Assembly (NCBI GenBank): GCA_000934665.2
Contig: JYFJ02002352.1
Coordinates: forward strand, 1-58,532
Direction of reading: 5' to 3'
Length of the DNA: 58,532 bases
Source: Catajapyx aquilonaris
Lineage: Eukaryota
Positions 1-37,700 of this stretch are shown here, in pieces. Below the pieces are notes generated by a model, which worked only from the letters and a program-made list of their open reading frames with translations, ran no database searches and had not been told where the DNA came from. Position numbers and translations under genes: made by a program. Every line of letters starts with the position of its first letter. Positions within the stretch are counted from its first letter, which is position 1.

Positions 1-440
1 AGTAACTTATGACCAATACACTATGTTAGCTGATGAGGCAGGATGTCACCTTCTTCATTGATTGATTTGTTTCTCCTTTTGCTGCTGTTAGTATTACTAA
101 CTTGAAGAAAAGTATCAGCTTTATGAGCTCGAGTTATTTCCATGGAGAATATTGGTACCTACAAGAGAAAAAGCTCTATTGAACTATGTTCAAATAGCCA
201 ATCCATTTATCTAAGCCAATCAGGCTGGAAAAACATCATGACTTATAACTCCCAAACCAAGGGCCATTCAATTCAAATTCATTGAACCTTTTTCTCTTGT
301 ACCTCCATAGGCCGAAACTGGTTTCAATAAAATTGGGCTCAGGTGGCTGACTTCGTTCCCTTATTGTTATCATAACCTGTTGTTCTCTTGCCAGCTCATA
401 GACACTCAGCAGTTTAATAAGTCACTGTCATCATTTTCAG

Positions 441-874
441 ATCAGTCAACTTCAGATACATCTACCACACCCAACATCCTTACTTCGAACAAATACACCA
501 TGCCAGAGGAAGTTCCAACACCTCGAAGTGAATCTGATGGACAAACAGTCATTCTTTTAGTTGTACTAATTGTGATATTAATAATTTTCGCAATATGCTT
601 GTGCGGCACAATTGGCAAAAAGAAGCCCAGTCCAGTAGGCCTACGTAACATTGAGGAGGCATCATACGTCCCAGCTGTTCCAAGGGAGACAACAAGGCCA
701 AGGACTCAAGCAGAAACAATAATACCAGCTGCATCACTACAAGTGGTGCTCCCACCAGAGCCATCAGCACCAGAACCATTACCATCATCCTCTCCCCCAG
801 AATATCAGCAAGTGATCCTACCTCCCGAGAACGAATCTCTTCCACCACCGTATGAGTCACTGTTTCCATCTTAG
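441..874 (+). CDS. CUB-like/LDLa/TM/PPxY family copy 1: last exon only (stalk, TM, Pro-rich tail); upstream exons probably outside the window
   Basis: Acceptor ttttcag|at at 440/441 (phase 1 as in paralogs); TM VILLVVLIVILIIFAICLC; tail has PSAP, PPEY and terminal PPPYESLFPS matching copies 2, 4, 5. Confidence 0.8.
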
Positions 875-2887: not shown

Positions 2888-2905
2888 CAATAATAATAAT
2901 TATTA

Positions 2906-2946
<41 letters not shown>

Positions 2947-2972
2947 CATTATTATTATAAATTATTTATTTA
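2888..2972. repeat. (ATT)n microsatellite
   Basis: Imperfect aat/att tandem array. Confidence 0.95.
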
Positions 2973-3119
2973 TTTTACTGCTTATGAACGGCATTGTGAT
3001 GTAATTGTGCCTCTGAGTACGATTGATATTTACTACTGTGATTCCCAAGCATGATATGAATCAAATACTGATACCAATAATTCAAATGTGAGAATTTGTG
3101 AGAAAGTGAAAGTTTGCCA

Positions 3120-13789: not shown

Positions 13790-13873
13790 AATTGAATCAC
13801 TTTTTATAAGAAGGGAACAAGTCCAACTTAAGGTTATTGGACTTGTTCCCTTCTTATAAAAAGTGATTCAATT
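13790..13873. repeat. Perfect 37-bp inverted repeat with 10-nt loop
   Basis: AATTGAATCACTTTTTATAAGAAGGGAACAAGTCCAA (13790-13826) and its exact reverse complement (13837-13873). Confidence 0.95.
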
Positions 13874-13987
13874 ATTTATCCTACATCTCATTGTCAGTGT
13901 CATGTTTCTGAACTGAATGAGCTGGACATGGGTGCAATACAAACAAATGCCATACGGATCCAATATAGAGAATCTATTTCAGATACC

Positions 13988-16160
13988 ATGAAGGCAGTGA
14001 CTACTTTTGTCGCTTTGAGAGTATTCGTCTGGATGGTCGTGCTGTTGCCAACGAAGGCAGCAAATGATTGCGAGTATGACTTCATTGTGATTGGGGGTGG
14101 GTCGGCAGGTGCTGTGGTCGTCAACCGCCTGTCCGAGGTCTCAAGGTGGAGTGTATTGTTGCTGGAGGCAGGCGGGATTCCACCTTGCTGGACAGAAGTG
14201 CCCTACCTGGCCCCGAAGCTTCTCAAAACTAATGTAGACTGGGAGTACTACACAGAACCTGATAATGACACTTGCCTTTCCATGAGTAATAACGCTTCTT
14301 TGTGGTCTCGAGGGAAGGCCCTCGGAGGAACTAGCATTCTCAATGGGATGCAGTACATACGCGGAAATCATAAAGATTACGACAATTGGGAGTCCATGGG
14401 AAATTCAGGGTGGAACGCAAGTTCTGCCCTCTATTACTTCAAGAAGTCTGAAGACTTTCGCAACGGACAATTTTATTCGGACTGGCAGAAGCACCATGGT
14501 CGAGGTGGTGACTTGACCGTTCAGGCAAATGCCACTTTTAGCAGCAACATGAAAGCTGTCCTTTTGGAAGGCGCCAAAGAGATGAATATGTCCATAGGGG
14601 ATTGTAATGGAGAAAATCAGACCAGATTTATGCCCTTGCAAAGTAATACAAGGGATGGCAGAAGGTGCAGTACTCACAAAGCCTTTCTCAACTCGGAATC
14701 CTTTAGAAGAAGGAACAATGCTTATGTTGTCACATACGCCTTGGTGACAAAAGTTTTGATAAATGGTAAGTACAGCCAAGCACTCTTTACAGTACATGGT
14801 GCAAATAATGCAGATATTAATGACACATTTATTTTCAGAAAGCAGCAAAGCAGCTTATGGTGTAACGTTCAAGAAAAACGGGGTTTTGTATGATGTGACT
14901 GCCAAAAAAGAAGTCATCCTTAGTGCAGGCACCATTGGATCTCCGCAAATACTCATGCTTTCTGGAGTTGGTCCAAAGGATCACTTGGAAGATGTTGGTG
15001 TCCCTCTGGTCCTTGACCTGCAAGGAGTTGGGGAAAACTTGCAGGACCACGTGTCCACCATGATGGTCTTCACGGCCAACACAAACGGTAGTCTTGATCC
15101 GATCTCCGCCTTTAGCCCTGAGAGTGCCTTGGTAAGATCAACGTTTATATTTGCTGCCCCCTGCACATGCGAAATAGTGTAGTAGAAACATATTCTCAAT
15201 GTTTACTCTGCATTCTGTTCCACACAGAAATGGGCGACGAACCAATCAAGTCCACTGAATGTACCTTCTGCAATAGAAGTCATGGGGTTTCTTCATAGCA
15301 AGTACAGTAATGCTTCTGAGGATCGCCCTGACCTCCAGATCTTTGCAGCCGACACTTCATTTCTGACTGATCCCACTTCTATTATAATTCCACCTTTTTC
15401 CCTAACTGTAGAGGCCTACAGCTCAGTTTTTGGTGAAGCAATGTTCAAGAAGTCTCACATGATCTTTCCTGTGAATGTCCGACCGAAAAGCAGGGGATAT
15501 ATTAAGCTGAAGAGTTCAGATCCGGAGGAGTACCCAGCCATATATCCAAACTATTTTGACGTTGACCAGGACTTGAAGGTCCTGATTGAAGGCTGCCGTT
15601 TTGCATACAATCTCTCCAGAACCAATGCTCTTCAAAAAGTCAAGTCAACATTTTGGAAGAAACCGTATCCTGGTTGCAAGGAATTCGAGTTTGGAGATGG
15701 GTCAGGCTCCGACGAGTACTGGACCTGCATGTTGAGGCACATGACCATGACCCTTTGGCATCCTGTGGGCACCTGCAAGATGGGGCCTAACCCATCTGAG
15801 GGTGCAGTGGTTGACCCCAGGCTGAGGGTGCATGGCATAGATCGACTCCGAGTGGTGGATGCTTCCATCATGCCAGTGATAACAGCAGGAAACACAAATG
15901 GTCCTACTATTATGATTGGAGAGAAAGCGTCAGACATGATCAAAAACGACTGGAGTGACAGCATGGGAAGAGATGTGAACGCTGAAAGCGTGTATTGCCC
16001 AAATGCTCAACTCCTATGTGAATTACCCAAGTTTACACAAAACATGCCATTAGATGGCAGTATGTTTCAACCATATTTGCATAACAATTTATCTGCTCTG
16101 ACGCAGCTGACAAATATCATAAATCGGGCATGTTTTGAACCATTCCCTACTGGGAAATAA
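13988..16160 (+). CDS. GMC oxidoreductase 1 (glucose dehydrogenase [FAD]-like, secreted), ~667 aa; exons 13988-14765, 14839-15131, 15228-16160
   Basis: [15 protein letters not shown] motif, [60 protein letters not shown]; hydrophobic N-terminus. Confidence 0.95.
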
Positions 16161-16220
16161 TAAAAAAAACAACAGCCACCACCACAATAGCAACAACATG
16201 TTATTGTTGTAAATGATGGC

Positions 16221-16304
16221 GGTGGTGATCTCTATAGGTGGTGGTGGTGATCTCTATAGGTGGTGGTGGTGATCTCTATAGGTGGTGGTGGTGGTGGTGG
16301 TGGT
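16221..16304. repeat. 22-bp minisatellite (x3) grading into (GGT)n
   Basis: ggtggtgatctctataggtggt units. Confidence 0.9.
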
Positions 16305-18438
16305 TGAATATTATTAACTGCAGTATTTCAATTTTAGGGTGACGAAGTCTAGGAGGTTGCGTTGCCTCTCTTGTCAGCTGATCTATAGAGTTTGTCTAAA
16401 GTTTACCAGAAACTTTACTACACTATTTTGATTGAAAATATGGAAAATATTCTTAAATACTAATAGACTACATGATTATGCATTATGCAAAGGCTAACTC
16501 AATTTCGACCAAAAGGTGGTTGATTATACCTGACATAATGGATCACTTGTGTTATTGTTTATGACTTATTGGAATAAAAAGGTGTAGCCTGGTTTTGGTA
16601 AAATCGCTCATTGTTTTATTGTACTGTATATGAAGCAATAAAAGCAAGGAAAGCAGGTAATCCAACCCAATGGAGCAAGCCTACATCTCAAAATATAATT
16701 TTGGTGAGTACAATAGTCTAAATCTGAAGAATATTTTTGATGCTGAAATTAAAACACCGCAGGTAGCGAGAGGAAAACACTAAATTGCAGCTCCATTGTC
16801 ATTAAAAAGCAGAAAGAAGTTCGTAACCATTTAAATGGTATTGTATTGTTTAAGGCAAAATATAAATATTTGTGTAAAAATTAGTCACTCACCCTTCATG
16901 ATCCTTTTCGATATTGTGGAAGTTTTGTATACGAGCGCATGGACCAATACATGCTAAATATATTGTCAAAGGGAATGGTAAAGAAAATATATTGTTATCT
17001 TCAGATCATAATATACGATATTTATTTCCTATATTCTCTGGCGATGTCTGTTAATTTAGTGTAATGTTGCGACTTTTCATTACAATACCAAGAAAACAAT
17101 TTTCCCGGCTATAATTATCATAACGTTCAAAAGTTCCCCATGAGTTTATTTTTTATTAAACAAAATAATGTTATAAGCATAAAATACTCCCCGCACTTTC
17201 GCGATGTGCTGAGAATAAAATTCCCTCTTCACACTTTTACACACTTGATAGTATTAAATGAGTGTCTCAGGCGGTTATAATAATTACGCATTTTGTTCCA
17301 AATTACGAAAACACAGTTAATGCAGTATCGGAAATAGTCCCACATCCAATCAATGCACATTGTTTTACTTAACTTATGTAAAAATATCATTTTCCCATTC
17401 AAATCTTTATACACATTACAAAGATGGATTACACTTATTGGAGCGTACGTGTGGGAGTCACCACGATTCCGGCCCTACTACTGTAATAACTGTGTGCCAT
17501 CTTTGAAGAATCGTGCACTTATACGAGTACAATAAATTTCGCATGATCTCTCCTTTTGCTTCCGTCCGACAAAATTGTCCAAAAGAGAGCTCATACAAAC
17601 CAATTCATCCAAATACCACAGGCCCAGTTGTAGCTCCAGTGATGGCGTATTCATTCTTGCTGTTATGTTGATTATTATTTTGGACGAGGAGTGCAGCGTA
17701 TATCCTTGAACATTCCCTTGCAACATGCACATTGCACAACCTTCGCAGTTTGTGCAATGACATTATTATTGAGGTTTGAGATTGAAACAGTACTCACCTG
17801 CTGGAAGCCTCGACGGCATCTCTTTGATGTCCCACAGCTGCAACAGACATTTCCTCCATTTTTACAGGCCACAAGTGGTGACTGATATATGTGAATGTTG
17901 AAAGGGATAATAAAGAGATCAGTGAGTCAGTGTCAATGCAAGGTTCTGCCCCAGAGAACATTTCAATTGCTCAATTTCTGTATACATGGATATGTCAATG
18001 CTATTGTATATCCACATTTGCGGAAGCTCATCAGTTTGTCACACAGCTGTGAAGCTGTCGGTTGTTGGGAACGTGTCATCTGAATATTCACTCAACGACT
18101 GAAGAATTTTTTTTTTACTTAGACCATTTAATCCCTCATGGTAAGTGTAATTTACTCGACTTTCTTGTATCATGTCAGTTGGAACTATAGATGGACACAG
18201 GTGCATTACAAGCAAATGTCTTATGGATATAACAATAATTAGTCACATTTTCCCAAGTGTTCTAATCATAACATTCACTTTGGAACAGATTGCATTGTAT
18301 TGGGACACGTTTAGAAAATGTTAATAACTTATAATCATATTGCAACCTTTACAACAGACTGCACGCAGAAAGTTACGCATCTTGCGAATAAACACTTTCA
18401 ATTGCATATGGTGATATGTCGGATCTTTTCCAGATACC

Positions 18439-20626
18439 ATGAAGGCGATGACTACTTTTGTCGCTTTGAGAGCATTCGTCTGCATGGTTCTGATGTTGCC
18501 AACGAAGGCAACAAATGATTGCGAGTATGACTTTATTGTGATTGGGGGTGGGTCGGCAGGTGCTGTTGTTGTCAACCGTCTCTCCGAAGTCTCAGGGTGG
18601 AATGTGTTGTTGCTGGAGGCAGGCGGGGTTCCACCTTGCTGGACAGAAGTGCCCTACCTGGCCCCGAAGCTTCTCAAAACCAAAGTAGACTGGGCGTACT
18701 ACACAGAACCTGATAATGACACTTGTCTTTCCATGAGGAATAACGCTTCTTTATGGTCTCGGGGAAAGGCTCTCGGAGGAACTAGCATTCTCAATGGGAT
18801 GCAGTACATACGCGGAAATCAAAAAGATTACGACAATTGGGAATCTATGGGAAATTCAGGGTGGAACTCAAGTTCTGCCCTCTATTACTTCAAGAAGTCT
18901 GAAGACTTTCGCAACGGACAATTTTATTCGGACTGGCAGAAGTACCATGGTCAAGGTGGTGACTTGACCGTTCAGGCAAATGCCACTTTTAGCAGCAATA
19001 TGAAAGCTGCCCTTTTGGAAGGCGCCAAAGAGATGGGATCGTCCATAGGGGATTGTAATGGAGAATATCAGACCAGATTTATGCCCTTGCAAAGCAATAC
19101 AAGGGATGGCAGAAGGTGCAGTACTCACAAAGCCTTTCTCAACTCGGAATCCTTTAGAAAGAGGAACAATGCTTATGTTGTCACATACGCCTTGGTGACA
19201 AAAATTTTGATTAATGGTATGTACAGCCAAGCAATTATTTTCTTACAGTAGGTTATGCAAATAATACAGATACCGTTTTAATGACACATTTATTTTCAGA
19301 AAACAATGTAGCTTATGGTGTAACATTCAAGAAAAACGGAGTATTACGTAATGTGACTGCCAAAAAAGAAGTAATTCTTAGTGCAGGCACCATTGGATCT
19401 CCGCAAATACTCATGCTTTCTGGAGTTGGTCCAAAGGATCATTTGGAGAAAGTTGGTGTCCCTCTGGTCCTTGACCTGCAAGGAGTTGGGGAAAACTTGC
19501 AGGACCACGTGACCACCATGATGGTCTTCACGGCCGACACAGACGGTAGTCTTGATCCGATCTCCGCCTTTCGCCCTGACAATGTCTTGGTAAGATCAAA
19601 AATACTTTATTTGGCGAACCCAGCTGCTAAACTGTTGGAACATATTCTGAATATTTACCATGCCATCTGTTCATGCAGAATTGGGCGATGGATAAATCAA
19701 GTCCACTGAATGTACCTTCTGCAATAGAAGTCATGGGGTTTCTTCATAGCAAGTACAGTAATGATTCTGAGGATTGGCCTGACATTCAGATCTTTGCAGC
19801 CGACACTTCATTTCTGACTGATCCCACTTCTTTTGTACGACCTCCTTTTTCTCTTACTGTCAGGGCTTATAACTCCGTTTTTCGTAGAGCAATGTTCAAG
19901 AAGTCTCACATGATCTTTCCTGTGAATGTCCGGCCTAAAAGCAGGGGATATATTAAGCTGAAGAGTTCAGATCCCGAGAAGTACCCAGCCATATATCCAA
20001 GCTATTTTGACGTTGACCAGGACTTGAAGGTCCTGATTGAAGGCTGCCGTTTTGCATACAATCTCTCCAGAACCAATGCTCTTCAAAAAGTCAAGTCAAC
20101 ATTTTGGAAGAAACCGTATCCTGGTTGCAAGGAATTCGAGTTTGGAGATGGGTCAGGCTCCGACGAGTACTGGACCTGCATGTTGAGGCACATGACGATG
20201 ACCCTTTGGCATCCTGTGGGCACCTGCAAGATGGGGCCTAACCCATCTGAGGGTGCAGTGGTTGACCCCAGGCTGAGGGTGCATGGCATAGATCGACTCC
20301 GAGTGGTGGATGCTTCTATAATGCCGGTGATAACGGCGGGAAACACTCATGGTCCTACTGTTATGATTGGAGAGAAAGCGTCAGATATGATCAAGAAAGA
20401 CTGGAGTGACAGCATGCAACGAAATGTGGACGCCGAAAGAGTGCATTGTCCGAATGCTGCACGGCTTCGTGACTTACCCAAGTTTGCACAAGACCAGATG
20501 TTGAATGGCAGACAGTTCCAGCAGTATTTTCGGAGAAACTCATTTAATCTGAAGCAGCTGACAGATATCATAAATCAGGCTTGTTTTCAACCAGGCCCGT
20601 TTGGAATATTTTCCACTGGCAAGTAG
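18439..20626 (+). CDS. GMC oxidoreductase 2, ~671 aa; exons 18439-19216, 19300-19589, 19679-20626
   Basis: Near-identical to GMC1 with the same motifs and intron positions. Confidence 0.95.
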
Positions 20627-22393
20627 GCTAATACGTAATACTAGTATAATTATAGTGGTTTTTAAAAAGATTTCAGCAATTTCAACGCAAGTATGACCCA
20701 AGTTCAAAAATTCTTTTTTACTATTTTTTAAACTGTCACGTTGTTTAATGTCTATATAGTTTTCCATGAAATGTATTATTACAGGTCAAAATGTAGCAGA
20801 ATTTGTAAAATACATCGAAATTGATACGTTATACTATCCCTAACCATGTCCCAGAGAGCCAGAGTAGCGGACCCAGAAGATGCAAGAACTTGGTTCTTTA
20901 TACTTTTACGTGTTTTGATACCTAATTTCCTCTCATTTAAATGTGAACCTGTAACATTTACAGTAATTAAGGGTTTATCCACAACTCCTATGTTAATAAA
21001 GAGTGCTTGAAATTCTGAAAATAAAGTGGGTGGATATCTTGGCATACTGTGGAATAATAATTGCTCTGAACTCTAGATTCTAGAATGTTGCTCCCCGATC
21101 AACATACTACTGTAGCAGTAACTCTTAACCAGCAGTTTCTGCTGCATGTTAATCTTTTTACGTCAAATTGTACGTATGACAAACATTGTGAGACATGTCT
21201 TGGTTTGGCACCTTGCATTGGGGTATTAGGCTCTATTTGAAGACAACACACCAAAGAAACCAATTCTACATCCTAAATTTTATATCATTCATTGACTCCT
21301 TTTTATATCTATCGCAAATATTTGGGAGACATTGCAAGTAGGTTACACAAAACCATAATAACTGCTATTGTGTAACAGATTATCCGGCAATATCAGAAAC
21401 TACAGGGTTAAGAAAACTTAAACCTCAACTGGAAATAAAATTTCATCAGCAACCACCAAGGAAATAGTTGACAACTTGCATATGCGTTATGAGTGGCAAG
21501 AAGTTAATATAATAATGCAGTCGATTCATTAACAAAAACCATTAGGAAGTATTCAAAATTGGCTAGATATGATGGGTACCCTATATGAGAGGCTGTTGTC
21601 TGACAGTTCTCTAAGATACGTTGTGACAACATGTGTTTACTGCACTGACCCAGAAATGCAGTAGATAATACCGCCTCATTCTGATATTATTAAGTGTACT
21701 GTAAACATTGCTCTGGCACAGTGCGCACATAGCTGTACGATATATACACTGTCGTATATCCTTGCAGGTTATCATTTCACTGGTTGGCAGATTATTCAGG
21801 AAACAGTTTGGTGAGGAAGAGAGGTTCCTTATAAGCCGCTCACTGTGAATGTTTCTAACAATCGCTAACCACACTTGAGCAGACGTAATTATTATCAGGC
21901 ATCAAAGGTATCCGTAAGTAACTTACATACGAGATTGAGGTCAACTTTTTGAGGGCATTTGCACTTGGTCTGACACATAAATCGCAACTGTTTCCCTACC
22001 GGCATTATTTGAAGGCCTGGCAAAATGCCTTTTTCTAGATATTTTGAGGAGATATTATTAACAATCACAGAGAATCTCTTCTGAATACTCGTAGTTAATG
22101 TATCAGCTCTGGTGCAACCTGTCCTTAATATTTTTCTGGACTTACTCCTATTTCAAGAACCGGGAATACCGGAATAGTTTGGCATGCACTATTATACAAG
22201 TGGCATCATATTTTAAAGGACACGTATTTTAAGGATTTTAAGGACTCGTATTTTACCCCCAATTTAACCCCATCGCCATCACATTACCCTTTGTGCGAAA
22301 GAAAGTCTATGATGAATAATGTGACGCTGTAATAGTGTAATGCATGTGTGATTGCATAATATTTTATCTGTAGAAAAGAGCACTGTGGACCTG

Positions 22394-24580
22394 ATGAAGA
22401 TGACTTTGAGATATTCGGCTTATACCATCCTGGTGGCACTTGCATCGATAGGGATCAATGAGGGTTGCGATTTCGACTTCATAGTGGTGGGTGGTGGGTC
22501 AGCAGGTGCTGTTGTGGCCAACCGTCTTTCGGAGGTCACAGGATGGAGGGTGCTGTTGGTGGAGGCCGGTGGAATACCACCTTACATCTCCGAGGTTCCT
22601 TACTTGGTATTTCAGCTTCAAAAGACGGATATAGACTGGCAATATTACACCGAACCAGATGGAGTCACCTGCCTCTCTATGGAGAAAGGAGCATCGTTTT
22701 GGCCTCGAGGCAAAGTCCTCGGAGGAAGTAGTGTCCTCAACGCCATGCAATACGTTCGAGGAAATCCCAAGGATTACGACCGATGGGAGTCCCTTGGAAA
22801 CCCAGGATGGGACTACGAGTCTGTGCTGCCTTACTTCAAGAAGTCCGAAGACTTCCGGGACGGAGAAGCGTATCCTGACAGGGATCTGTACCATGGTGAA
22901 GGTGGTGATTTGACGGTGCAGGCTGAGACCAAGTACTCGACCAATATGCGCACGATATTTCTGGATAGTGCGCAACAGATGGGATATCCGACGGGAGATT
23001 GCAATGGAGAGACTCAGGTCAGATTCATGCCACTCTCAAGTACTACCAGAGATGGGAGGAGATGCAGTACCTATAAAGCTTTCCTGACATCGGCTCGATG
23101 GAGACAAAATCTTTACGTCGTCACTTACGCCAAGGTGACTAAGATTTTAATTGACGGTAAGTCCTCCAATCATTCAGTAGACCTCTACCTGTAGTCTGTA
23201 ACTGAGAAATGGAAAAATGCGCTGCCAATTAAAAAAGTTTTTTGTTTCTCCTGAAAGGCTCAGGTATATACTTTTGGCCATTTCTATTCTCACTGATTCA
23301 ACCATTACAGCACGGCATAACTTTACAAGTCAGTTTTGTATTGCAGAGAGCAGGACAGCATACGGTGTTGAATTCTTGAAAGATGGCGAGATGTATACGG
23401 TGATAGCAGAGAAAGAAGTTATTCTTAGTGCAGGAGCTATTGGGTCGCCACAGATACTCATGCTCTCCGGCGTAGGACCAAAGAAACACTTGGATGAAGT
23501 CGGTGTTCCATTCGTTCACGACCTTCCAGGGGTAGGGAAAAACTTACATGACCATGTGACTACGATGATGGTCTTCACGGCTGAAACAGATGGTCATCTT
23601 GACCCGGCATATGCTCTTCGGTATGACAATGTCTTGGTAAGTAAAGTATAAGTAATATTTCTAATTCATCAGCTAATGAGCAGCCTAAACCAACATTTTT
23701 CTCACGGCATTGCATACAGTTGTATGCAAATCCTATTGGTGAGAATTTGAACAAACCTCTCATTATTTATTAGGCTTGGGCGTATAAGAAGCCCAGCCCT
23801 CTCTCTGTTCCTGCTGCAGCGGAAGTCCTCGGTTTCATTAACACCAAATACAGCAATTCCTCTGAGGGTTGGCCTGACATACAAATAGTTCATACCAGCA
23901 CTTCCAGTGTGGTTGATCCTGCTTCAGCACAATATCCTCCATTTTCTCTGACCAAGAAGGATTATCTCGCAGTTTTTGGGGACGCTTTAGGACGGAGAAG
24001 CTTCGTCATATTCCCCATAAACTTACGTCCAAAAAGCAGAGGATACATCCAATTAAGAAGTTCAGATCCCGAGGAGCATCCAGCTATATATCCAAACTAC
24101 TTCGGAGATGAGCAGGATTTAAAGGTCCTGATCGAGGGATGCCGGTTTGCTTACGACATTTCAAGAACTGAAGCTATGCAGCTGATTAATGCTGCATTTT
24201 GGAAGAAACAGTACCCTGGTTGCGAAGAATTCGAATTTGGAGATGGGTCAGGCACCGAGGAGTACTGGACCTGCATGTTGAGGCACATGACCATGACTGT
24301 CTTCCACCCTGTTGGCACCTGCAAGATGGGGCCTGACCCCTCAGATGGTTCAGTGGTTGACCCTAGGCTGAGGGTGCACGGGATTGATGGCCTTCGAGTG
24401 GTGGATGCTTCCATCATGCCAGACATAGTTAGCGGAAACACCAATGCACCAACCATCATGGTCGCCGAGAAAGCATCGGACATGATAAAGGACGACTGGC
24501 TCTATGCCATTCGACAAAAAATAAACACAAACTTCTCATGTCCGGTAACTTCCACACTAGGAAAGTTACTGCTACTCTAA
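22394..24580 (+). CDS. GMC oxidoreductase 3, ~619 aa; exons 22394-23156, 23347-23636, 23774-24580
   Basis: [43 protein letters not shown]; signal peptide; same intron positions. Confidence 0.95.
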
Positions 24581-25633
24581 GAATTAAATGAGTCACATTG
24601 GGTTGTCCTGTGCGGCTGTGCCAAGTGATTTACAGAATCAATGTATTAAGATTTAAGTGAATGATAGAGCAGAAACAAAATGACACCCTGTAATAAAGTT
24701 ATCATATGAGTTCATCAAAAAGACTGTCTGTAATTTTTACTAAGAAACATCCAAAAGAATTCTACATATCGTGTACAATTTTGTCCGGATTAGATGTAAC
24801 TTTTTCGAGCAATAAATGCGCAGATACTTTACATGAAAAATTAAAGATGATCCCCACACTGCCAATTAAGTTACGCCAAATTTTTGAGACATAATTCTTG
24901 ACAATTTTGCGGGTGCAAAGCAATCTAAAGTGTGCCTACTGACCTACACTGATCATTCCAACATTGGAAAATCTAAAATAAAACTTTTTGAGTCTTCCAA
25001 TGAGCCCCCAATATTCTCTCAAAAAAATTATTACATTACTGACTAAATACTACAGCTGGAGTAAATATCCTCCCAACCCGAGGCAAAATGAGACCCCAAG
25101 TTACCCATGTCCAGAAATATCTGGCAAAACTGGATTCCGGTGTGGGGGTTAATGGGTGACTGACCGGGAGTGAGTGAGTCGGTGCAGATGGAATTCTCAC
25201 TTGGACATATCGAGTAATCTAGTTCAGTCTCACTTTCTCACTTACCTGCAAGCATTGGACTAGCTAGTGCAGACCTCCAGCTTGAGAAGGGCACCCAGAT
25301 AAACTCCAAGTACTGGTAGCAACAATAAGGTAATGTAGCCTAGACTCTGAGTTTTCCTAGTCGATAATTATTATTGTTTGGCTGATTGTCCCCTTAAATA
25401 ATAATAGCAAGAAGGTTATAAAAAATCGGTATGCTGACAGTTGCATAGCGCCAGGATACTTTTAGCCAAAACTGTTTTTTGACATAAGTTACCGGTATTT
25501 GGACATAAGTTATCTAAAATGTTTCTAGAAGTACTACCTCCATTTTTGGAAATGAACACTTCATACAGTAATAATTATGTAATTACACAATACTTTAACT
25601 GCAGATCCAATTCGCTCTCGACGACCTCAGAAA

Positions 25634-28297
25634 ATGTGTGCCAGATTTGCTGCCACCGTCGTGGTGGCATCACTCACATTGCTGAAGATTATTCAGGGTT
25701 GTGAGTTCGACTTCGTGGTCGTGGGTGGTGGGTCAGCAGGGGCTGTGGTGGCCAACCGTCTTTCGGAGGTCCCAAGATGGAGGGTGCTGTTGGTGGAGGC
25801 AGGTGGAACACCACCTTCCATCTCGGAGGTCCCTTATTTGGCCAATTCGCTCCAAAAAACCAATATAGACTGGCAATATTACACCGAACCAGATGGAGTC
25901 ACCTGCCTCTCTATGGAGAAAGGAGCATCGTTTTGGCCTCGAGGCAAAGTCCTCGGAGGAAGTAGTGTCCTCAACGCCATGCAATACGTGCGTGGAAATC
26001 CCAAGGATTACGACATGTGGGAATCCCTTGGAAATCCAGGATGGGACTACGAGTCTGTTCTGCCTTACTTCAAGAAGTCCGAAGACTTCCGAGACGGAGA
26101 AGCTTATCCGGAGAAGGATCTGTACCATGGTGAAGGTGGTGATTTGACTGTGCAAGCAGATAGATTCCACACCAATATGCGCGATATCATTTTGGAAGGT
26201 GCGAAAGAGATGGGATATCCCACAGGAGATTGTAATGGAAATAGTCAGGCCAGATTCATGCCACTTCAGAGTACTACGAGAGATGGTAGGAGGTGCAGTA
26301 CCTACAAATCTTTTCTGAACTCAGCTCGATGGAGAGAAAATATTCATGTCGTAACTCACGCCTCGGTGACTAAGATTTTAATTAATGGTGAGGCCACCCA
26401 AAAAATCAGTGATATTCTTTAACTATTATTATTATTTTTGACATTGCAGGGAGTAAAGCAGCCTACGGTGTTGAATTCGAGAAAGATAACGTGCTTCATC
26501 TGGTGACAGCAAAGAAGGAAATTATTTTGAGTGCGGGAGCAATCGGGTCACCACAGTTACTCATGCTGTCAGGCGTGGGTCCAAAGCAGCACTTGGAAGA
26601 TGTTGGTGTTCCCTTCGTCCACGACCTTCCAGGTGTAGGGAAAAACTTACAGGACCATGTAACCAGTATGATGGTCTTCACGGCTAAAACTGATGGTCAT
26701 CTCGACACTTCGTATGCTTTTCGTCCTGACAATGTCTTGGTAAGAAAATTAAGCAAACCCTAATTCAGTATAATACAACCTGTGTGTAAGTAGTTCTACT
26801 TGTACAATGCAACTTCTCTCAACAATGCATCGATATTTCATTATAAGATTTACATCATACTTACGTAACATGTCTTTTGCTACTTTCGCCCTTCCTGAAA
26901 ACAAGTTAAAATGACATTAGATAAAAACACATTATTTCGACCCTGCTTGCAACGTGAAAGCGAACTAAACTGATGCAAGGGTTTTTTTCACTGTACCTTG
27001 TTTAGAATAATATATTATGCGTGATAGTCTGATTACACGTTTCCCATGAAAATAATATCAATTCGTATATAATTTTTAATTACCCTTACTAACTGTAGTA
27101 TATAACCAACACTGGAAATTTCAATGTAAACAGTGGCCGGAATCACGATATAGCCTACTGCAGAGAATTTAACAGGTCATGGGTGACAAAATAAAGCTGC
27201 ACGTAAAGTCTGTGTCATAAAAAGTGACTGCATAATGCCTCGTTGTACAGTAGGTTACTGTACTACCAGGACAATGGTGAGAGAAAGTAGAGCAACAACT
27301 TGACTTAACAAACACCCTTGCCCACCTCGTTTTATGAATATCAAGGTGCCTCACTTACTGTGCACCATATTGACCTAACTATTCGAAATTACCTTCGCAG
27401 TTGGATACAACTCTTGTTAGTGTCTAATATTCTAACAACACTCTCTTCATTTTTCAGGCATGGACGTTCAACAGGCCCAGCCCTCTATCCGTTCCTGCTG
27501 CTGTGGAAGTAATTGGTTTCATGAACACAAAATACAGTAATTCCTCGAATGAATGGCCTGACATGCAACTAATTGAAATCAGCATGTCAAGTCTGACTGA
27601 TCCTACTTCAACTATAAATCCACCATTTTCTCTAACCAGAAAGGACTTTCAGTCAGTTTTCCATGACGCTTTAGGTCGGCGAAGCTTCACGATATTCCCC
27701 ATAAACTTACGTCCGAAAAGCAGAGGTTTCATCCAGTTGAGAAGTTCTGATCCCGAGGAACATCCAGCCATATATCCCAACTACCTCGGAGATGAGCAGG
27801 ATTTGAAGGTCCTGATCGAGGGGTGCCGGCTTGCCTACGACCTCTCTAGAACACAATCCCTGCAACAGGTCAACGCTGAATTCTGGAAGAAGCCCTACCC
27901 TGGCTGCGAGGAATTCGAATTTGGAGACGGGTCAGGCACCGACGAGTACTGGACCTGCATGTTGAGGCACATGACCATGACCCTCTACCATCCTGTGGGC
28001 ACCTGCAAGATGGGGCCTAGCCCATCTGAGGGTGCAGTGGTTGACCCCAGGCTGAGGGTGCATGGGGTCAAGGGTCTGCGAGTGGTGGATGCTTCCATCA
28101 TGCCGATGATAACGAGCGGAAACACCAATGCCCCAACCATCATGATCGGAGAGAAAGCATCGGACATGATCAAGGAGGACTGGAACGATATTTTTGGACA
28201 AGAAAAGGACTCAAGCGTTTTTTGTCCTGTAACATCGGCGTTAGAAAAGGTACTATTATTTTCATTGGATGAAGGAGGCTATATCGATGTAGCGTGA
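25634..28297 (+). CDS. GMC oxidoreductase 4, ~627 aa; exons 25634-26387, 26450-26739, 27458-28297
   Basis: [29 protein letters not shown]; signal peptide; same intron positions. Confidence 0.95.
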
Positions 28298-29071: not shown

Positions 29072-31852
29072 TCATGGTATATAATCCGTTTTCCCTCTGA
29101 CAAAATCGTCCATCCACGACCGCGTTTTGAGCTTGTTCGTGCGTTTCTGATTATATAGTTTCTCCAACATGAAAGTAAGAAAAGACATGATATACCCTAA
29201 AAATAAAAAGTAGAAGACCCCTTCTAATCTGGTCACAGAGAAGGCATCCAGATCTGGCCCAAGTTGCAGACCCTGCTCCCTCAGCTTTCTTAGAGACTCC
29301 ATTGTCACATGCAGTTCCATGGCACGATCCCACTTGTATCTGAGGCCACTGGCCACATAGTTGGACACCCAGAAGGTAAAACTGGTCGTCAGGATGTTGT
29401 GTTTGGACAGGAGGATGGCCAGTGGGATTCGAGGGGTCATGTCAGGAGAAATCTGCAGCCGACTTTGACCCTTCTTGTTCAGCATGGCCCTAGCCCGTGG
29501 CTCGTTGGTGGACCATCGGAAAAGACACACAATGTCGTCGTCCAGGCATCGCTCAAAGCATTCGTCCAGATCATCGGTTATTTCCATCTTGTTGAATAAG
29601 GGCGTGTATATTTCTCTGTCCTCCAAGTAGATCTGGAAGGTCAAAATACTGCGTGTATAATGAGGCGCGCTGAATAATGAAGAGATGTAATAGTCTCTCG
29701 TGACATTTGGGCAGGCAGAAGGCACTGACGCTGAACGAGATTACTTTGTCAAAGTAAACTACTAATGATCACGCCAAAGTTCGTTCTAGTTTTTCTCATC
29801 GATAAAATATAACACTGACCTCTCTTATTGCAACATTGTCGGAGATAACGGCCCATTTATTAAGGGGGTATTACTCTCATGTCTCACCTTTTATCGCTAT
29901 TGAGCAATTAGAGCAACAAGGTTTATACCATACTTTGAATACTGACGCAAATTATGGTATAAATGTTTAGTTACTGTGACCTCTATGTTACGTTTTTTTT
30001 AGGTTTTATTATTTTGAAACCAACGTGCACAAATTTTATGGTGTATACCTTCTAGGAAAAAATGAAGAAACCCGTTCAGGATGTAAAGAAGGCAAGAGTT
30101 CTTTAAAGAAAGTTCATATCATATTTTTAAATGTGAGTTTACAGTGGCGGATAAATCATATAGGTGCCGATTGTTTGTGTTATGTGTTTTGGATCAAAGA
30201 GAGACAGCTCTATAAGGCGCGGTGCTTGCCGGGGTAAAGTCAGTTTCTTCCACTATAAGTACTATAGGTATACGCAAGGTATACGTATACACTTGCAAAA
30301 TATTACACTTAACATGCTAGGAGTTTTAAGAAAATCTGCGACTTACTTCCAAGATGTACTTGACCATACTCTCAGTCTTCGCCGGAAATGGACTGGCGAG
30401 CAATTCCCTGATGTTTTGAGGCAGGGTCTCGGTTGGTGGAGACGTCAGAAGATTGAACAGAGTGGTCTTGTAAGCAGTTCCCAGAACGATTGATGCAAAT
30501 AGCCAGAAGCACAAAAATATTCTTGGTGAAGTTTTGTACGTCATGTAGACTGGAAACTGCTCCAGAAGTGAGTCCAAAATGTACTGGAAGGAATAGGAAA
30601 GCAGGGCCAGGAAGGACTGGTACGCTCCTTTTTCCTGCATCTGAATCGGGTCATTTGGTGATGCTACCAGGAAGAAAGTTAACGTGGACATACAGAAGAG
30701 GCTTAGTATCCCAACCAACATCCAAATCACGGGCTGGAAGGGACGGACAAACACGTCCGGAGAGAGGAGCTTCCGAGGTACCCGTGTGGCCATACCAGCG
30801 TAGTCCAGCTTGTAAAATGACGTCTGATCGGTCAGGCCAAAGCTGGCCAAGGTGATCACACTCTCTGGAATAAATGTGTGCTTCCGAAGGGCTAGGTCCA
30901 AGTTCATTTGAATCATGAGCTTTGGCTCAGAACAGTCATCATCACACTTCGGGCTCTCCAGCTCCCAACGGAAGTTGAGTGCTTGACCCACAAAGCATAA
31001 GTGCCGTACACGCTGCACATCTAGGGTATTGGTGGCGCACTGCTCCGAGGACAACTTCATTGGGTACACCGAATTCAAAGTGACGTCTTGAAGATTGAAA
31101 GTTGTATCTGGCCACAGTTCTTCCCTTCCACTGCGTTTGGATTGTATAAAATAAGGCCTGAAGAAGAAAGCCTCTGGTTTTCCCATGTTGCAATACCAGC
31201 AAGAGGACTGGATCAAAACTGCCCCCTTGTTGTCTGGTAAGATATCAGGAGTAAGAGCCAGCTTGAACTTGAAACGCGTCGCTGGAACAGAGAACAGGTA
31301 GGACTCTGGGGTCGGGGCATCTCGGATCCAAATTATGAACCTGCTGAGGGCCTTCTTGTACATAACACTGCTTTCGATGCCGTTCAGAAACTCATCAATT
31401 TTGATAAAGTTGTGCATGCAAGTCGACACGAAGAACACAGTGCAGTCCGGCAGCTGATGCTTCTCGCCCGCCTTTGGCCTGTCGACGCCCCCTGTCTCGT
31501 TGTGCAGCATCCCCGGTCCGGAGCAGTTCCACTTGGCCCGTTCCTCCTCGCTGACCACGTGGATCAGAGATGCCCGAGGTTGAGCTGTGACCTGCTGAAG
31601 CAATCGCCTCATAGGACCAGGCATTGGTGGCTCCGACTCGTACGTGATGACCAGGGGGCACTCTGCTGGTAGGCTGCGATGTATTATGTGGGCGGCTGCT
31701 TCGGATACAGCATCTGAGGCCAGGTCAGATGCAGGGTCGTCACCCATTGATTGACGGACATCTAGCCACGACCCAATGCATTTGGTCTGATCGCTAAGGG
31801 CGTGCCAAACTGCAACACAGATTGCGAGTGAGGCAAGCATAGTGGTAGACAC
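29072..31852 (-). CDS. Divergent ionotropic receptor (IR, variant iGluR chemoreceptor), ~688 aa; exons 31852-30347 and 29632-29072
   Basis: Signal peptide; VRPFQPVIW before M1; LLEQ pore segment; RIFLCFWLFASIVLGTAYKTTLFNLLTSP; ASGLRYKW; LEGVFYFLFLGYIMSFLTFMLE; phase-0 intron GAA|GTAAGT...TTCCAG|ATC. Confidence 0.88.
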
Positions 31853-33010
31853 TGTGCGTGTACGACCGGCGCGGCGTGGCGCAGGGTTTTATATATACGC
31901 ATGATATTTATGACAAGTGTAATCCACGGTTGTTGCACATAAGTTGGTGGAACTTCATTCGGCCGGAACTCATAGCCCACCACTACAGTTGTGGGTTTTA
32001 GGGCCAAATAATTATTATGGCTTGAGAATTATTTATAATAATTTTGTGTCAATTTGGCTGACTAGCTAGGTAGAGCAGCTTATACAGTAAAGAGGCACAC
32101 TCTAGGATAGCCGTGTACAGTGTGATACTTTTTGTCTCTAAATGCAATCGATTCTCCCAATATGACAAGGGCACATGTCTAGGTTGAAGCAATGTGGACA
32201 TGGGCACTTGTTCCATATTGGGTGATTTAATCATATTGTTTAACGACTTGACGCTCAGAAATTGAGTAAAAATAATTGCCATCATATATTCATAATGGTT
32301 GCATTTAATGAAGTTTCATTAACATGCAAGAAAATGTTTAGAAAGATGATAGTATATTCTGCTTTTATGTGCCATTCACAAAAGAAACTAATGGGCCTAT
32401 CCACAATACCACAGCCGACCACAGCAGCATATATGTCGGACCGTGTAGTCTGGACAAAGGAGAACTTACCCATTGAGTATCAGTATACCCTTATTACCCT
32501 ATAAAGACGTACTAGTTATTTTTATAATAAATTAACCTGCCCCATATAGCCTAAGTAATAAGTTACATCCCCGTGGTCCGAAATAACGAACCAAGCGGAC
32601 AAAGCTTACATTGGGACGCTTAAGCAACGAGCCAGGGGTGTCCTGAAATGCTGAATAATATTTATATTTCCCAGTTAACCATTAATTAAGTTACTAAGTA
32701 GAAACTGACAAACTTCCCTCATTGTCCCACTATGACGATGTACAAGTAATATTATTGCCTCATGTATGCTGTCAATGTGTTATTGCGACAACCAAGGCAA
32801 TGCAGCCTAATGAATGAATGGCTCTGACGCAACCCAGGAGAGTGGTATTCTGCGAAGCCAATGGAAGTCATGTGATTTGGACAAAATTAGCCTTTCCCCT
32901 CTCTGCTACGTGTTGGTGCTGCTGCGGAGTATCCTCACTGCACCTGATGAGTGCTTGGTGATCAGGCTGATAACTAGGCGCCACCGGACAAAATTCCTTG
33001 GCTACAAGTG

Positions 33011-34340
33011 ATGTTCACGGCTTTACTTTTTGTCACAGTCTTCAGCTGGACAAGTGCCCAACAGTACCGTAAGTAAGCTGTACTTATAACTGCTCAGTTC
33101 GGTTAAACAAGACAGTGGCATCTTATAACCGCACTACACTACAATGATTTTTTTTTTGCATTTTAGATACTATCAGTACTGATTCCGCGTTTTGTCTTTC
33201 AAGTGAAGACAGTAAAAATAACAGTAGAGATGCTTTTTATATAAAGCCTCAGATCAAAGGATATCATTATATGATCACGTATGAAGGCGTTACCTCCTCG
33301 AAGATTCCTGAAACAGTGTGTATATTTAAAGTCTCTACTTGGATGTCATATGGAATATTGGCAACACTTCATAAAATGTCACTGACAGAAGATATAAACG
33401 GAACTTGCTCGGATTACATAAAGGCAGGTGCATATTTTAGACATACAGCCTCGACTCTAGAGAGTAAACATTTATATAAACTGTTACAGTTTTCAGACAA
33501 AGAAGGCCTCATTAGTGACGAGCTATGTGGAAATAACATCGATAAAAACTCTGCCATATTAGGCAATTCTTACTTTACGAGGTCTAACACCATGTAGTAC
33601 ATAGCGCTGGAAACTGCCGGAAGCAATACAGAGTACAATGTAACACGTCATATGAGCTTCCAAATGTCTTTTGTGGTTTTTAAAAGTGAGTAGGCTACTT
33701 TTACACTATTCAGGTGTCACGGCTATTCGTATCTTTACCTGTTGCAGATTGCACTCATGTAGGCCTATATGAATCATTTTGGAAAAGGTGTCCAATGACA
33801 GACATATGCTTGTATAAAAATATGTTCTGCGACAGAATTATTTACTGTCCCACTTATGACAGGAAATTATGCAATCAGCCATCAGAAACAAGTGAGTAAT
33901 TTTTATTGGAGCCATGTAGCTTCCTGAGCACTTATTGTTATTCTTACAATATATCCTTATTTCCAGTCCATACCAGAACGCCGACAGATAACAAGCCTCC
34001 TAAAACACGTGTCGATAAAGGTCCACTCACTTCAACGTTGCTGTTGTGCATCACGATTCCCACATGTTCCCTCTTGCTAGTAGGCGGATTATTGGCATAT
34101 TACATGAATAAAAAACCAGGGTGCCACAATCTTGAAGACAGGCATAGCTCGGAAATGAGTGACAATTTTGTTAATCGCCACCGAGACATTTCTAACCATG
34201 ATGGACACATAGACCCGACTTCAAGGGAATTCCCTATCGTGATTACACGTAATCCTAATAATTTATTACGAGTAAGAGAAGAGGAACGTCGCTTCTCCTA
34301 CGTGTTTCAATTGCTCTGCAAAAACACATCTAACTGGTAA
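33011..34340 (+). pseudogene. CUB-like/LDLa/TM family copy 3, probable pseudogene; exons 33011-33068, 33167-33423 (or 33427), 33490 (or 33497)-33685, 33748-33891, 33967-34340
   Basis: Same exon layout as copy 2; in-frame TAG at 33595-33597; LDLa eroded (FCDRIIYCP); no terminal PPxY. Confidence 0.75.
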
Positions 34341-34729: not shown

Positions 34730-37700
34730 ATGCTGCCAACCATGCACTGTGCCACTCTCATACTGCTGCACGTGGGCCTCATCACCACGCTGGTGACCAC
34801 CCATGTGCGGGCCTACTGGTTCTGTGAGTAGCCGCACATGCATACCTACTTGCCACATGTTGATAGCTCGCTTTTGCAGACACTCTTGGAGGAAATGGAA
34901 TGGATTGCGACCCAGAGACAAGAGGGATGAAGTTGGTGCTGCAGTTGGACTCGGCCCTGATTCATGGGAGTTACGTCAAGATCAAAGGGACCGTGCCTGC
35001 AGCGTCAGGGCCCAGGACTGTATGCAGCTTCTCGGTGGAGCCACCGCCTGGATATAGGGTGCTGGTCACGGTGCAAAAAATGTTCCTGGTTGCGTGGCAT
35101 GATGGTTCTTGCGAGGAGTCTGTTGAGGTATAGAGAAGTATTGTATTTATTGATATGAGCATTTTTATCAGAATTTGAAGGATAGAGACGGCCAGTGACT
35201 TTTTAAAACCCTCCTCCTCCCAATACAGTGTTTGTGCTAGCCCTGCTAAACATGGGCATGACGGATGTGGCCATTCCTGTACTAGACACATGCCAAAATA
35301 CAAGTAGCCACTCTTAGTGTACTCCTAGATGTAAGAAAAGTATTACTCAGTATTTTTTGTGGAAGAGCGCACAAGAAACATGTATGAGAAGTCATACTGG
35401 TACATGTTTTGTAGTTGCAGTTACAATGTGCCACACATGTACAAGTGAAATCATGGAAAGGTTAGGGAGCTTTTTAAATTTTGAATCTTTTTAATGTACC
35501 ATATGTCAGCAATTTTTTATTAAAGTCTAGGCAACAAAAGTCAGAGGCTGCCTGTATATGCTTTGCTGGTTGCTTTCCTTCACACCAGCCCTTCACACAG
35601 GGATGTATTACAGTGCCCACCTTTTTTGCTTGTAACTAGAAAATTCTGCAAGATGCAACTTGTAATTTTCACCAATGATTCCCCCCCCCCCCCCTACCAT
35701 TTACCTATTTTATTCATTATCCAGAATTCTAAAAACCAAAAATTTCCAAAATCCAAAAGGCATGATGAGCCACAAATGGAAAATCTCATACGAGTGTGAC
35801 ATGACTCGTACCAATACCTGTATTTGTACATACCGGTATTCAAAGTTATTCTAAATTAATATTAAAAACCCTCTACGGTTTATGTATAACCTCTATTATG
35901 AAATGCAGATTGATATCATATTTCGGCTTAGGTCATAACCAAATACTTTCCTATTTTGTAGTTGCAAATGTACAAATATTCCATACTACAAAAAAAAATA
36001 CAAAATCAGAAACATTTCCAGTCCCAAGCATTTTGGATAAAGGATTCTCAACCTGTACCATGTTTTATCAGATTAATGGTGAATATCTTGGACCACAGTA
36101 GAAAAATATGTACAATCAATCTGCCTTGCTTGCTTTTTTGTGCTAGACAAAACATATTATCACAATCAATAGGCCTATGTACTATCATACAATTGTGACA
36201 TATCCATTAGGTGATTAGGAGTTTTGTGTGCACTCATCTCAGGTTTGAAGAGCAATTGGAAGATATCCTCCTTTTACCAACTTTCTCAACTATAACTGTA
36301 GGCTCCTTTTGTACCAAAACCCATGTTTCTGGGTAAAATCCCATACAGGCAGGAAGTCGATCACAGTAAGGGTGGTCTGGTCTTGTAATGGTTAATGCCC
36401 CAGATTTCCATATCTGAGGTCCTAAGTTCAGCCATTAGATCAGGGCATAGATATCTCAAGTGCTATAGAGTTTTCAATGGTTCTTCTCAATATATGGGAA
36501 ACTTTTTTTGTCATGGCACCACTTTCATGAATTTTAAGCATCTCCCAAGACATTGTTATGGGGATCTAATTATGGTATCCTGATGAGAGAGTGTCATGCA
36601 TTCAGGTTGCGCATGCCTCTTTTAATGAACTTTTCTCAAGTTGACAGCAGTCATGCCCTTCTAGAAGAGACACTTTGGGCGGGTCAGCGCCATGTAACTC
36701 TGTGATGCCCACCAACCAAAACAGGTTGGCGCAGGGGGTATAAAGTGTGTATGGGTTTTCTGAGAGTCCTCTCCCCCTTTTTGTGACACCTTAAAATCTG
36801 CCCACAATGAATAGCAGTGGGCTAGTACAAAATGAAGTCCTTCATGTTTCTTGATCATATTGAGGACGTTCCTAAAAGCACCGGTGCACAGACCAATGCG
36901 CCCTGCCGGTTCCCCTCCGGTACGGCTACCAATGACGTCAGCTCTCGGATTAAGGGAACTTTTTTTTGGAACGCACCAGTAACAAAAATGGCGACCAACC
37001 GCAGAATTCGAACATGGAATTAGTCACCCTCTTTCGAAACATCTGCATAGCCTCACCTGAGCCGAAAATAGACATGCCAGGAGACAGAAATGGCTGCGGG
37101 TTGCAGACCACAGCTCATTAATACATCCTTTTCGGTGTTAAAACGCCCGAGGTAGGCCAGTTTCACATGCTCATACCCCATCTAATACCCAGTGCTGGGA
37201 GTCGCCATGTTAGATCGACCGGACGAACCATATCCCTCCGACCGTGCAAGCGGTTCCCTATTGGTGACATCATACATGACGTTGCCTCAGCTACAGGTCG
37301 GCGGACCAGAGAATTTAGAAACGGTTCTGGTCGCACTGGTTGGCTACCGGTGCGTTTAGGAACGTCCTCATAGTGTCCAGTAATTATTTCAACTGTCATT
37401 GCATAATTGTGAATATAAAATTAAGATCAATTTATGCCCAGTTTTCAGATGGAAGAAACTCCGTAAGTGGTGTTCTATGTGGAAGAAAGGATCAAGAGGA
37501 AATCAGAACTGCCAGGTATCCTTCTTGGATATATTCATTCAACACCTCAAGTACAATGCATGTGGACCTGGCAACAATAGGAGGTGTTTCTGCAGAAAAG
37601 ACTCGCAGAGATTTCAGCATCGAAATGGCATTTGTTGCATTCCAAGGTACGCTTGTTCTTAGGGAGTGTTTTTTTCCTCCATTCTTCTGGAGAGGCGAGA

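Follow-up and report, generated by a model that had tools for sequence, protein, structure and literature searches.

A divergent ionotropic receptor gene lies head to head with a decaying CUB-LDLa paralogue in Catajapyx aquilonaris, probably by chance

Contig JYFJ02002352.1 of the Catajapyx aquilonaris assembly GCA_000934665.2 was analyzed over 58,532 nucleotides, a stretch called the window hereafter. Positions 29072-34340 of the window hold two divergently oriented genes: an ionotropic receptor (IR) gene on the minus strand and, on the plus strand, the third copy of an array of genes encoding proteins with a CUB domain and an LDLa module. IRs are variants descended from ionotropic glutamate receptors (iGluRs). 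Neto1 and Neto2 of vertebrates, Drosophila Neto, and SOL-2 of C. elegans are CUB-LDLa auxiliary subunits of iGluRs. The first-pass annotation of this DNA had therefore raised a functional link, in which the CUB-LDLa proteins traffic or modulate IRs, with the caveat that the adjacency may be due to chance.

The two start codons are separated by 1,170 bp (31841-33010), in agreement with the distance of about 1.16 kb reported at first, and the ATG of copy 3 was confirmed from the sequence at 33011. For the IR gene, the strand and the divergent orientation were correct, but the start codon had been placed at 31852, where an in-frame GTG stands four codons before the first ATG; that ATG is found at 31840, 12 nt away. 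The intergenic spacer (31841..33010), with a divergent start codon on either side, has a GC content of 0.41 and an observed/expected CpG ratio of 0.66. It contains no open reading frame (ORF) bearing a Pfam domain and no tandem repeat. As had also been noted, the pair sits within the CUB-LDLa array, for which five paralogues were located, and beside four tandem GMC oxidoreductase genes (13.8-28.3 kb).

The IR gene consists of two exons. Exon 1 (31840..30347, minus strand) has 498 codons, encoding a signal-like N terminus, about 360 residues ahead of the first membrane helix (M1), M1 itself, the pore region, and M2. It is followed by a phase-0 intron of 714 nt (30346..29633), with the donor GTAAGT at 30346 and the acceptor CCAG (AG at 29634-29633). 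Exon 2 (29632..29075, minus strand; 186 codons plus the stop codon at 29074-29072) supplies the remainder of the ligand-binding lobe and the final transmembrane (TM) helix (residues 636-654). Splicing joins the frames of both exons without a stop, and the resulting coding sequence of 684 codons has zero internal stops. A TATA-like motif is present at 31890-31897, about 50 nt upstream of the ATG.

We then considered whether the product is an IR-type channel, as had been claimed. In the Pfam comparison, exon 1 matched Lig_chan with an E value of 8.3e-6 (26.1 bits), under the curated cutoff of 30.8. When exon 1 was compared with PDB sequences, 59 of the 60 matches listed were iGluR channel cores of the NMDA or kainate type, spanning M1-M3, with a best E value of just 0.014. 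These alignments cover residues 353-471, and the remaining match was a viral tegument protein. Exon 2 alone gave one PDB match, to NR2B near M4, which was not significant (E of 1). In a language-model atlas, the neighbors of exon 1 were arthropod clusters of Lig_chan and Lig_chan-Glu_bd proteins (score of 0.96; 214 of 256 features). The predicted protein has hydrophobic segments at residues 374-392, 441-459, and 636-654, and their spacing is right for channel helices. Taken together, these results argue convincingly for an intact, divergent ionotropic receptor of the tuning type, with three membrane helices and a pore region, even though the curated threshold for Lig_chan was missed. The claim that the gene encodes an IR-type channel was thus supported.

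M1 starts near residue 365 in this receptor; in the NMDA and kainate receptors aligned with it, M1 starts at 520-545, about 170 residues later. Therefore, the receptor appears to have no full amino-terminal domain, as expected for a tuning IR. A word-based homologue search with exon 1 returned no close relatives. The absence of close database relatives, the small number of introns, and a location alone among unrelated genes are features shared with the divergent tuning IRs of early-branching hexapods, such as those of the dipluran Campodea augens. According to the published description, C. augens has 2,431 IRs, making up about 8% of its genes, many of which are singletons dispersed in the genome, and several of its IR lineages gained one or two introns (PMC6938034).

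The CUB-LDLa paralogues were located within the window by tblastn and with a family hidden Markov model (HMM), which gave five copies. Copy 1 (311..874, plus strand) is represented by its last exon only, the gene running off the window. This exon encodes a TM helix and a tail that ends in ESLPPPYESLFPS before the stop codon, and it matched the family HMM weakly (E of 0.041). Copy 2, on the plus strand, is intact, with 389 codons in five exons (4724-4820, 4902-5221, 5729-5933, 7494-7631, and 9546-9955). Copy 4, on the plus strand, is intact as well, with 342 codons in four exons (34730-34823, 34880-35127, 37442-37646, and 37885-38366) and a tail ending in LPPRYETLFPSS before the stop codon. For copy 5, intact and on the minus strand, four exons were located (40644-40406, 40343-40121, 40029-39814, and 39753-39527), and the signal-peptide exon was not located. 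Copies 2, 4, and 5 are open throughout.

The copies have a common exon plan, in which a signal-peptide exon is followed by exons for CUB part a, CUB part b, the LDLa module, and the TM helix with the tail, with intron phases of 1, 0, 1, and 1. Copy 4 differs in that LDLa and TM share one exon. The intron that splits the CUB domain measures 507 nt in copy 2, about 2.3 kb in copy 4, and 66 to 69 nt in copy 3. Each copy encodes a small type I membrane protein in which a signal peptide precedes a single CUB domain, a single degenerate LDLa module, and a single TM helix; the cytoplasmic tail has about 60 to 135 residues (about 135 in copy 2). Pairwise identity among the copies is just 21 to 34%; therefore, either the duplications date far back or the genes evolve rapidly. 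A remnant of a mariner-type transposase (6304-6991, minus strand; Pfam Transposase_1, E of 1e-17, and HTH_48, E of 4e-5) was also found in copy 2, within the intron between its CUB and LDLa exons.

Copy 3 (33011..34340, plus strand, with the stop codon at 34338-34340) has four or five exons and is disabled. Exon 1 (33011..33068) encodes the signal peptide and has a phase-1 donor, GTAAGT; the exon ends as in copy 2, with a Tyr codon plus 1 nt. Four signs of decay were found in the remaining exons. First, the CUB exon or exons (33167..33685) carry an in-frame TAG at 33595-33597, within a strand of the CUB sandwich. Second, the conserved phase-0 donor at 33424-33425 reads GC, whereas copies 2, 4, and 5 have AAG or GAG followed by GT. 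Third, the LDLa-like exon (33748..33891) retains six Cys residues, but it reads FCDR where copies 2, 4, and 5 have FCDG, and the acidic DE pair is gone. Fourth, the last exon (33967..34340) encodes the stalk, the TM helix, and a tail without the PY motif LPPxYE(S/T)LFP (see below). The identity of copy 3 to the other copies, 21 to 28%, is the lowest or near-lowest. Copy 3 is therefore a decaying copy, and the remark in the first-pass annotation that it looks disabled was confirmed by the TAG in the CUB exon and the three further signs.

The region around the abnormal donor (33424-33496) can be read as a mini-intron of 66 nt (GC-AG) or of 69 nt (GT-AG), both in frame. The mini-intron contains no stop, and its retention would add about 22 residues without breaking the frame. 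An AlphaFold model of the copy 3 CUB exon, with the TAG read as X, had a mean predicted local distance difference test (pLDDT) score of 67.2. The intron-like stretch, residues 94-111, scored below 50, so the mini-intron coincides with a low-confidence part of the model. All seven Foldseek matches of this model at an E value of ≤0.001 were CUB domains.

It could be argued that copy 3 is nevertheless alive, with the TAG misassembled, segregating as one allele, or read through, and that it is coregulated with the IR gene from the spacer. A Drosophila IR is a known case of a read-through "pseudo-pseudogene," the TAG alone interrupts the frame of 342 codons, and the predicted structure of the exon is still that of a CUB domain. 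However, the four signs of decay are independent of one another (TAG, GC donor, loss of FCDG and DE, and loss of the tail motif), and the low identity to the other copies points in the same direction. Furthermore, DNA sequencing runs contain 97 to 98% of the words sampled across the stretch, a stretch-wide figure and not one for the TAG position. We therefore regard a living copy 3 as most improbable.

Next, the identity of the domains encoded by the array was examined. Among 300 ORFs of the window with at least 60 residues (two ORFs near 58 kb were left out), none matched a Pfam CUB or LDLa model at an E value of ≤0.01, and Pfam CUB gave no match at an E value of ≤0.1 for the homologues P0001, P0004, P0008, and P0010. 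The pattern of cysteines is that of a CUB domain, with four conserved Cys residues and two disulfide positions kept. A single CUB-like domain, preceded by the signal peptide and followed by the LDLa module, is present in all four spliced copy models and in the insect homologues. In the family, the LDLa module has six Cys residues and precedes a single hydrophobic TM helix, and its calcium-binding acidic residues are partly lost.

A profile of the CUB part, searched against 1.84 billion proteins, gave 15 matches at an E value of ≤1e-3. Eleven of them were short arthropod proteins or fragments with the same build as the window copies, and two were canonical multi-CUB proteins, with E values of 1.8e-4 and 2.5e-4, aligned in four and three stretches, respectively. 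The matches P0013 and P0014 (E of about 7e-4) were rejected as relatives: they consist of tandem repeats of about 45 residues with Cpn60-like Pfam fragments and were taken as repeat artifacts. When a profile of the LDLa-TM-tail part was compared with the PDB, Neto2 came first (E of 3.1e-4), and 26 of the 28 matches bear LDLa modules. P0002, one of the eleven arthropod matches of the CUB-part profile, has an LDLa module that is significant in Pfam (E of 2.9e-6). When an HMM was built solely from six insect homologues, it recovered copy 5 (E of 2.3e-37; 114.9 bits), copy 2 (6.1e-21), copy 3 (5.2e-17), and copy 4 (1.9e-15), copy 5 being the copy nearest to the insect homologues.

The fold was further examined by modeling the thrips homologue P0004 with AlphaFold from 27 aligned rows that included the window exons. 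The model had a mean pLDDT of 77.4, with values above 90 over most of the CUB domain and of 85 to 89 over LDLa. A Foldseek search gave 59 matches at an E value of ≤0.001. The top six were Neto2 chains of GluK2-Neto2 complexes (E of 1.1e-7 to 4.5e-6), and classic CUB domains came next. In VIA-align, Neto2 matched with a Z score of 12.1 (3.3 Å over 150 residues), residues 39-238 of the model being superposed on Neto2 residues 175-330, which comprise CUB2 and LDLa; the sequence identity in this structural alignment was just 14 to 16%. Single CUB domains followed at Z scores of 9 to 11. In total, 67 chains had a Z score of ≥8, and every match listed holds a CUB domain. The array proteins are thus a family of CUB-LDLa single-pass proteins that is invisible to the Pfam models in the window. 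The original domain call was supported both by the profiles, which reach canonical CUB proteins and Neto2, and by the models, which match Neto2 CUB2-LDLa and CUB folds.

Named members of this family are annotated as "uncharacterized" or "hypothetical" proteins in an aphid, thrips, wasps, a mealybug, a scale insect, a bee, and stick insects; one bears a kinase name that is evidently automatic. Examples are XP_026289049.1 of Frankliniella occidentalis, XP_014230947.1 of Trichogramma pretiosum, and VVC44566.1 of Cinara cedri. The insect homologues have 335 to 393 residues, similar to the 342 to 389 codons of the window copies. Most members share the C-terminal sequence LPPxYE(S/T)LFP, which is found in window copies 1, 2, 4, and 5 (four of five) and in 12 of 13 aligned homologues; it is missing from copy 3 and from the homologue P0002. 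This sequence contains a PY motif (L/PPxY) overlapping a YxxL sorting signal, and PY motifs are described as binding the WW domains of Nedd4-family proteins (PMC2064599). A word-based homologue search among longer proteins with the last exon of copy 4 gave no match, and no Drosophila sequences were among the matches of the family-profile and homologue searches. A scan of metagenome contigs for the tail motif matched 78 stretches, none of which was confirmed. The one metagenome locus obtained with the copy 5 CUB exon (L001) was rejected as a chance match, as it is a dense contig of bacterial type that holds no member of the family (best family-HMM E value of 0.055). As judged by these sequence comparisons, the family is conserved, unnamed, and uncharacterized in hexapods and akin to proteins of the Neto, CULD, and Loaf kind.

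The similarity to Neto is relevant to the idea of an IR accessory system. The window family and the Neto type share the organization of a type I membrane protein with CUB, LDLa, and a TM helix in this order, and Neto2 is the best fold match in the PDB. In contrast to Neto, which has two CUB domains, the window family has one; its LDLa module is degenerate (Pfam E of 0.11 at best), and its tail ends in the PY/YxxL motif. According to the models, the family resembles the membrane-proximal half of Neto2 (CUB2-LDLa-TM). If members of the array were Neto-like auxiliary or trafficking subunits of IRs, with the linkage reflecting shared regulation, the CUB domain would dock on the ligand-binding domain of the IR, with the TM helix packed against the channel, as for Neto2 CUB2-LDLa-TM on GluK2 (PDB entries 7F56 and 9N4Q). 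Consistent with this idea are the Z score of 12.1 against Neto2 CUB2-LDLa, the Neto2 chains in the top six Foldseek positions, the match of the LDLa-TM profile to Neto2 (E of 3.1e-4), and the divergent orientation of the two genes at a distance of 1,170 bp. The IR itself would also fit, with M1 near residue 365 instead of 520-545, because in a receptor without a full amino-terminal domain the contact made by Neto CUB1 would not be needed.

However, the copy adjacent to the IR gene is the broken one, there is one IR per five copies with no coduplication, and a TATA-like motif belonging to the IR gene itself lies about 50 nt from the ATG. The family is also present in insects of several orders. 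In the accounts available for Drosophila, proteins with the same layout serve rhodopsin and TRPL (CULD) or surface proteins (Loaf), not IRs (PMC4732287 and PMC8205486), and among the matches listed for literature containing both "IR25a" and "Neto," neither term stood in a title or abstract. We therefore consider an IR accessory system very unlikely. A more specific version casts the copies as "mini-Netos" whose expansion took place in a hexapod with a very large IR repertoire. They would serve IRs without the amino-terminal domain, either as auxiliary subunits or in trafficking, and the PY tail would set receptor turnover. In our view, this version is highly improbable.

By analogy, the layout closest to that of the window family is found in Drosophila CULD and Loaf. 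CULD (CG17352) is described as having one CUB domain, one LDLa module, and one TM helix, being present on endocytic vesicles, and being needed for the turnover of Rh1 and TRPL (PMC4732287). A corresponding role is proposed for the window family. The domains of CULD are seen by InterPro, whereas those of the window family are not seen by Pfam, and no PY motif is mentioned for CULD (PMC4732287). Loaf (CG6024) is described as an endosomal CUB-LDLa TM protein of 378 residues with a short cytoplasmic domain at 292-378, and it was proposed to control the trafficking of other surface proteins; no tail motif is given for it (PMC8205486). Loaf resembles the window family in layout and in size (335 to 393 residues for the homologues), and it is not known to be linked to IRs.

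A cytoplasmic L/PPxY motif is also shared with the PY adaptors LAPTM5, NDFIP, TMEM127, and Commissureless, which, unlike the window family, have no CUB or LDLa ectodomain. Such adaptors are reported to target membrane proteins, whether their clients or themselves, to endosomes or lysosomes (for Commissureless, PMC8205486). Based on these analogies, the family probably consists of endocytic sorting adaptors for membrane cargo.

Alternatively, the array could encode ligand-uptake receptors, whose CUB and LDLa domains bind soluble ligands, as in cubilin or LRP-type receptors, and whose YxxL/PY tail drives internalization with no membrane client. CUB and LDLa are indeed described as ligand-binding units of endocytic receptors (PMC8205486, citing Moestrup and Verroust), the tyrosine-based tail is conserved, and cubilin and enteropeptidase were among the fold matches. 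However, the family has only one CUB domain and one degenerate LDLa module whose calcium-binding acidic residues are partly lost, its nearest fold is Neto2 rather than an uptake receptor, and the characterized proteins of this layout are described as acting on membrane cargo (PMC4732287 and PMC8205486). Ligand uptake is thus an unlikely function of the family.

We then asked whether the adjacency of the IR gene and the CUB-LDLa array carries information. A tblastn search of the window found no IR remnants elsewhere (other matches had E values of ≥2.3), leaving one IR per five copies; therefore, the IR and CUB-LDLa genes were not duplicated together. The IR gene is also not alone in interrupting the array, as four GMC genes lie with it between copies 2 and 3. 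The flanks of the IR gene have no direct repeats and no tandem repeats, just short imperfect inverted repeats, and thus nothing marks the gene as a mobile cassette that arrived there. By chance alone, one in four pairs of neighboring genes would be divergent. The window has one IR among about 14 genes, which is near the IR share of C. augens (about 8%), and by analogy with that species, the IRs in this genome appear to be numerous and dispersed. On this basis, the evidence leans toward a chance adjacency, in line with the caveat made at the outset: copy 3 is decaying, there was no coduplication, and the IR share of the window is near the base rate taken by analogy. The functional link to IRs, in which the CUB-LDLa proteins would traffic or modulate them, gained no support: the facing copy is the decaying one, there is one IR per five copies, and the GMC genes interrupt the array too. 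Further points against it are the single CUB domain compared with the two of Neto and the use of the same layout in CULD and Loaf for rhodopsin/TRPL and surface proteins.

From these results, we infer that the most likely explanation, and a fairly probable one, is that an intact IR gene and the decaying third of five CUB-LDLa paralogues are unrelated neighbors by chance and that the CUB-LDLa family functions in endocytic sorting through its PY motif. In the proposed mechanism, the CUB-LDLa ectodomain would hold a membrane or secreted partner. The PY motif of the tail is predicted to engage the WW domains of Nedd4-family proteins, with the overlapping YxxL acting as a sorting signal, and the tail would then direct the complex to the endocytic or endosomal pathway, much as CULD acts on rhodopsin and TRPL. 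Most simply, the IR gene, which belongs to a very large and dispersed family, would have landed in the array by chance, like the four adjoining GMC genes.

Several points weigh against this explanation. Among the 13 exon translations, the Pfam CUB model (PF00431) gave no match at an E value of ≤10, and at this threshold Ldl_recept_a reached 0.11 at best and touched only the copy 5 exon; likewise, the CUB-part profile gave 0 matches to PDB sequences at an E value of ≤10. The best fold relative of the family in the PDB is an auxiliary subunit of the channel family ancestral to IRs, a one-CUB protein would suit receptors without an amino-terminal domain, and five copies of the family are arrayed here in a genome in which IRs, by analogy, appear to be expanded. 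The TAG of copy 3 may reflect misassembly or a polymorphism. Finally, the IR base rate was taken from another species, C. augens, and the call of a chance adjacency relies on base rates and the state of copy 3.

If true, the link to IRs would provide the first dedicated auxiliary subunit for chemosensory IRs and would extend the Neto principle beyond synaptic glutamate receptors to smell and taste. As the evidence stands, the IR-CUB-LDLa pairing is ordinary. The lasting result is a smaller one, namely, a conserved, unnamed hexapod family with one CUB domain, one LDLa module, and a PY/YxxL tail, which by analogy is a candidate endocytic sorting adaptor.

The four tandem GMC oxidoreductase genes (13832..28297, plus strand) have three coding exons each and matched Pfam GMC_oxred_N and GMC_oxred_C with E values of 1e-14 to 1e-43. 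Their first exons are 59 to 88% identical (88% for genes 1 and 2 and 74% for genes 3 and 4); the GMC array is therefore much younger than the CUB-LDLa array that it interrupts. It had also been suggested that these oxidases make or clear the ligand of the IR, for which proximity was the one indication, with nothing else for or against it. Elsewhere in the window, exons of an SBF (sodium/bile-acid symporter) gene were found at 47308-50387 (plus strand; Pfam PF01758 in three ORFs, E of 1e-5 to 7e-11), and an exon encoding the end of an NTF2 domain was found at 55188-55406 (plus strand; Pfam PF02136, E of 1.5e-5). A long microsatellite of the TAT/ATT type at 2884-3051 (plus strand) reads as poly-Ile or poly-Tyr in two frames.

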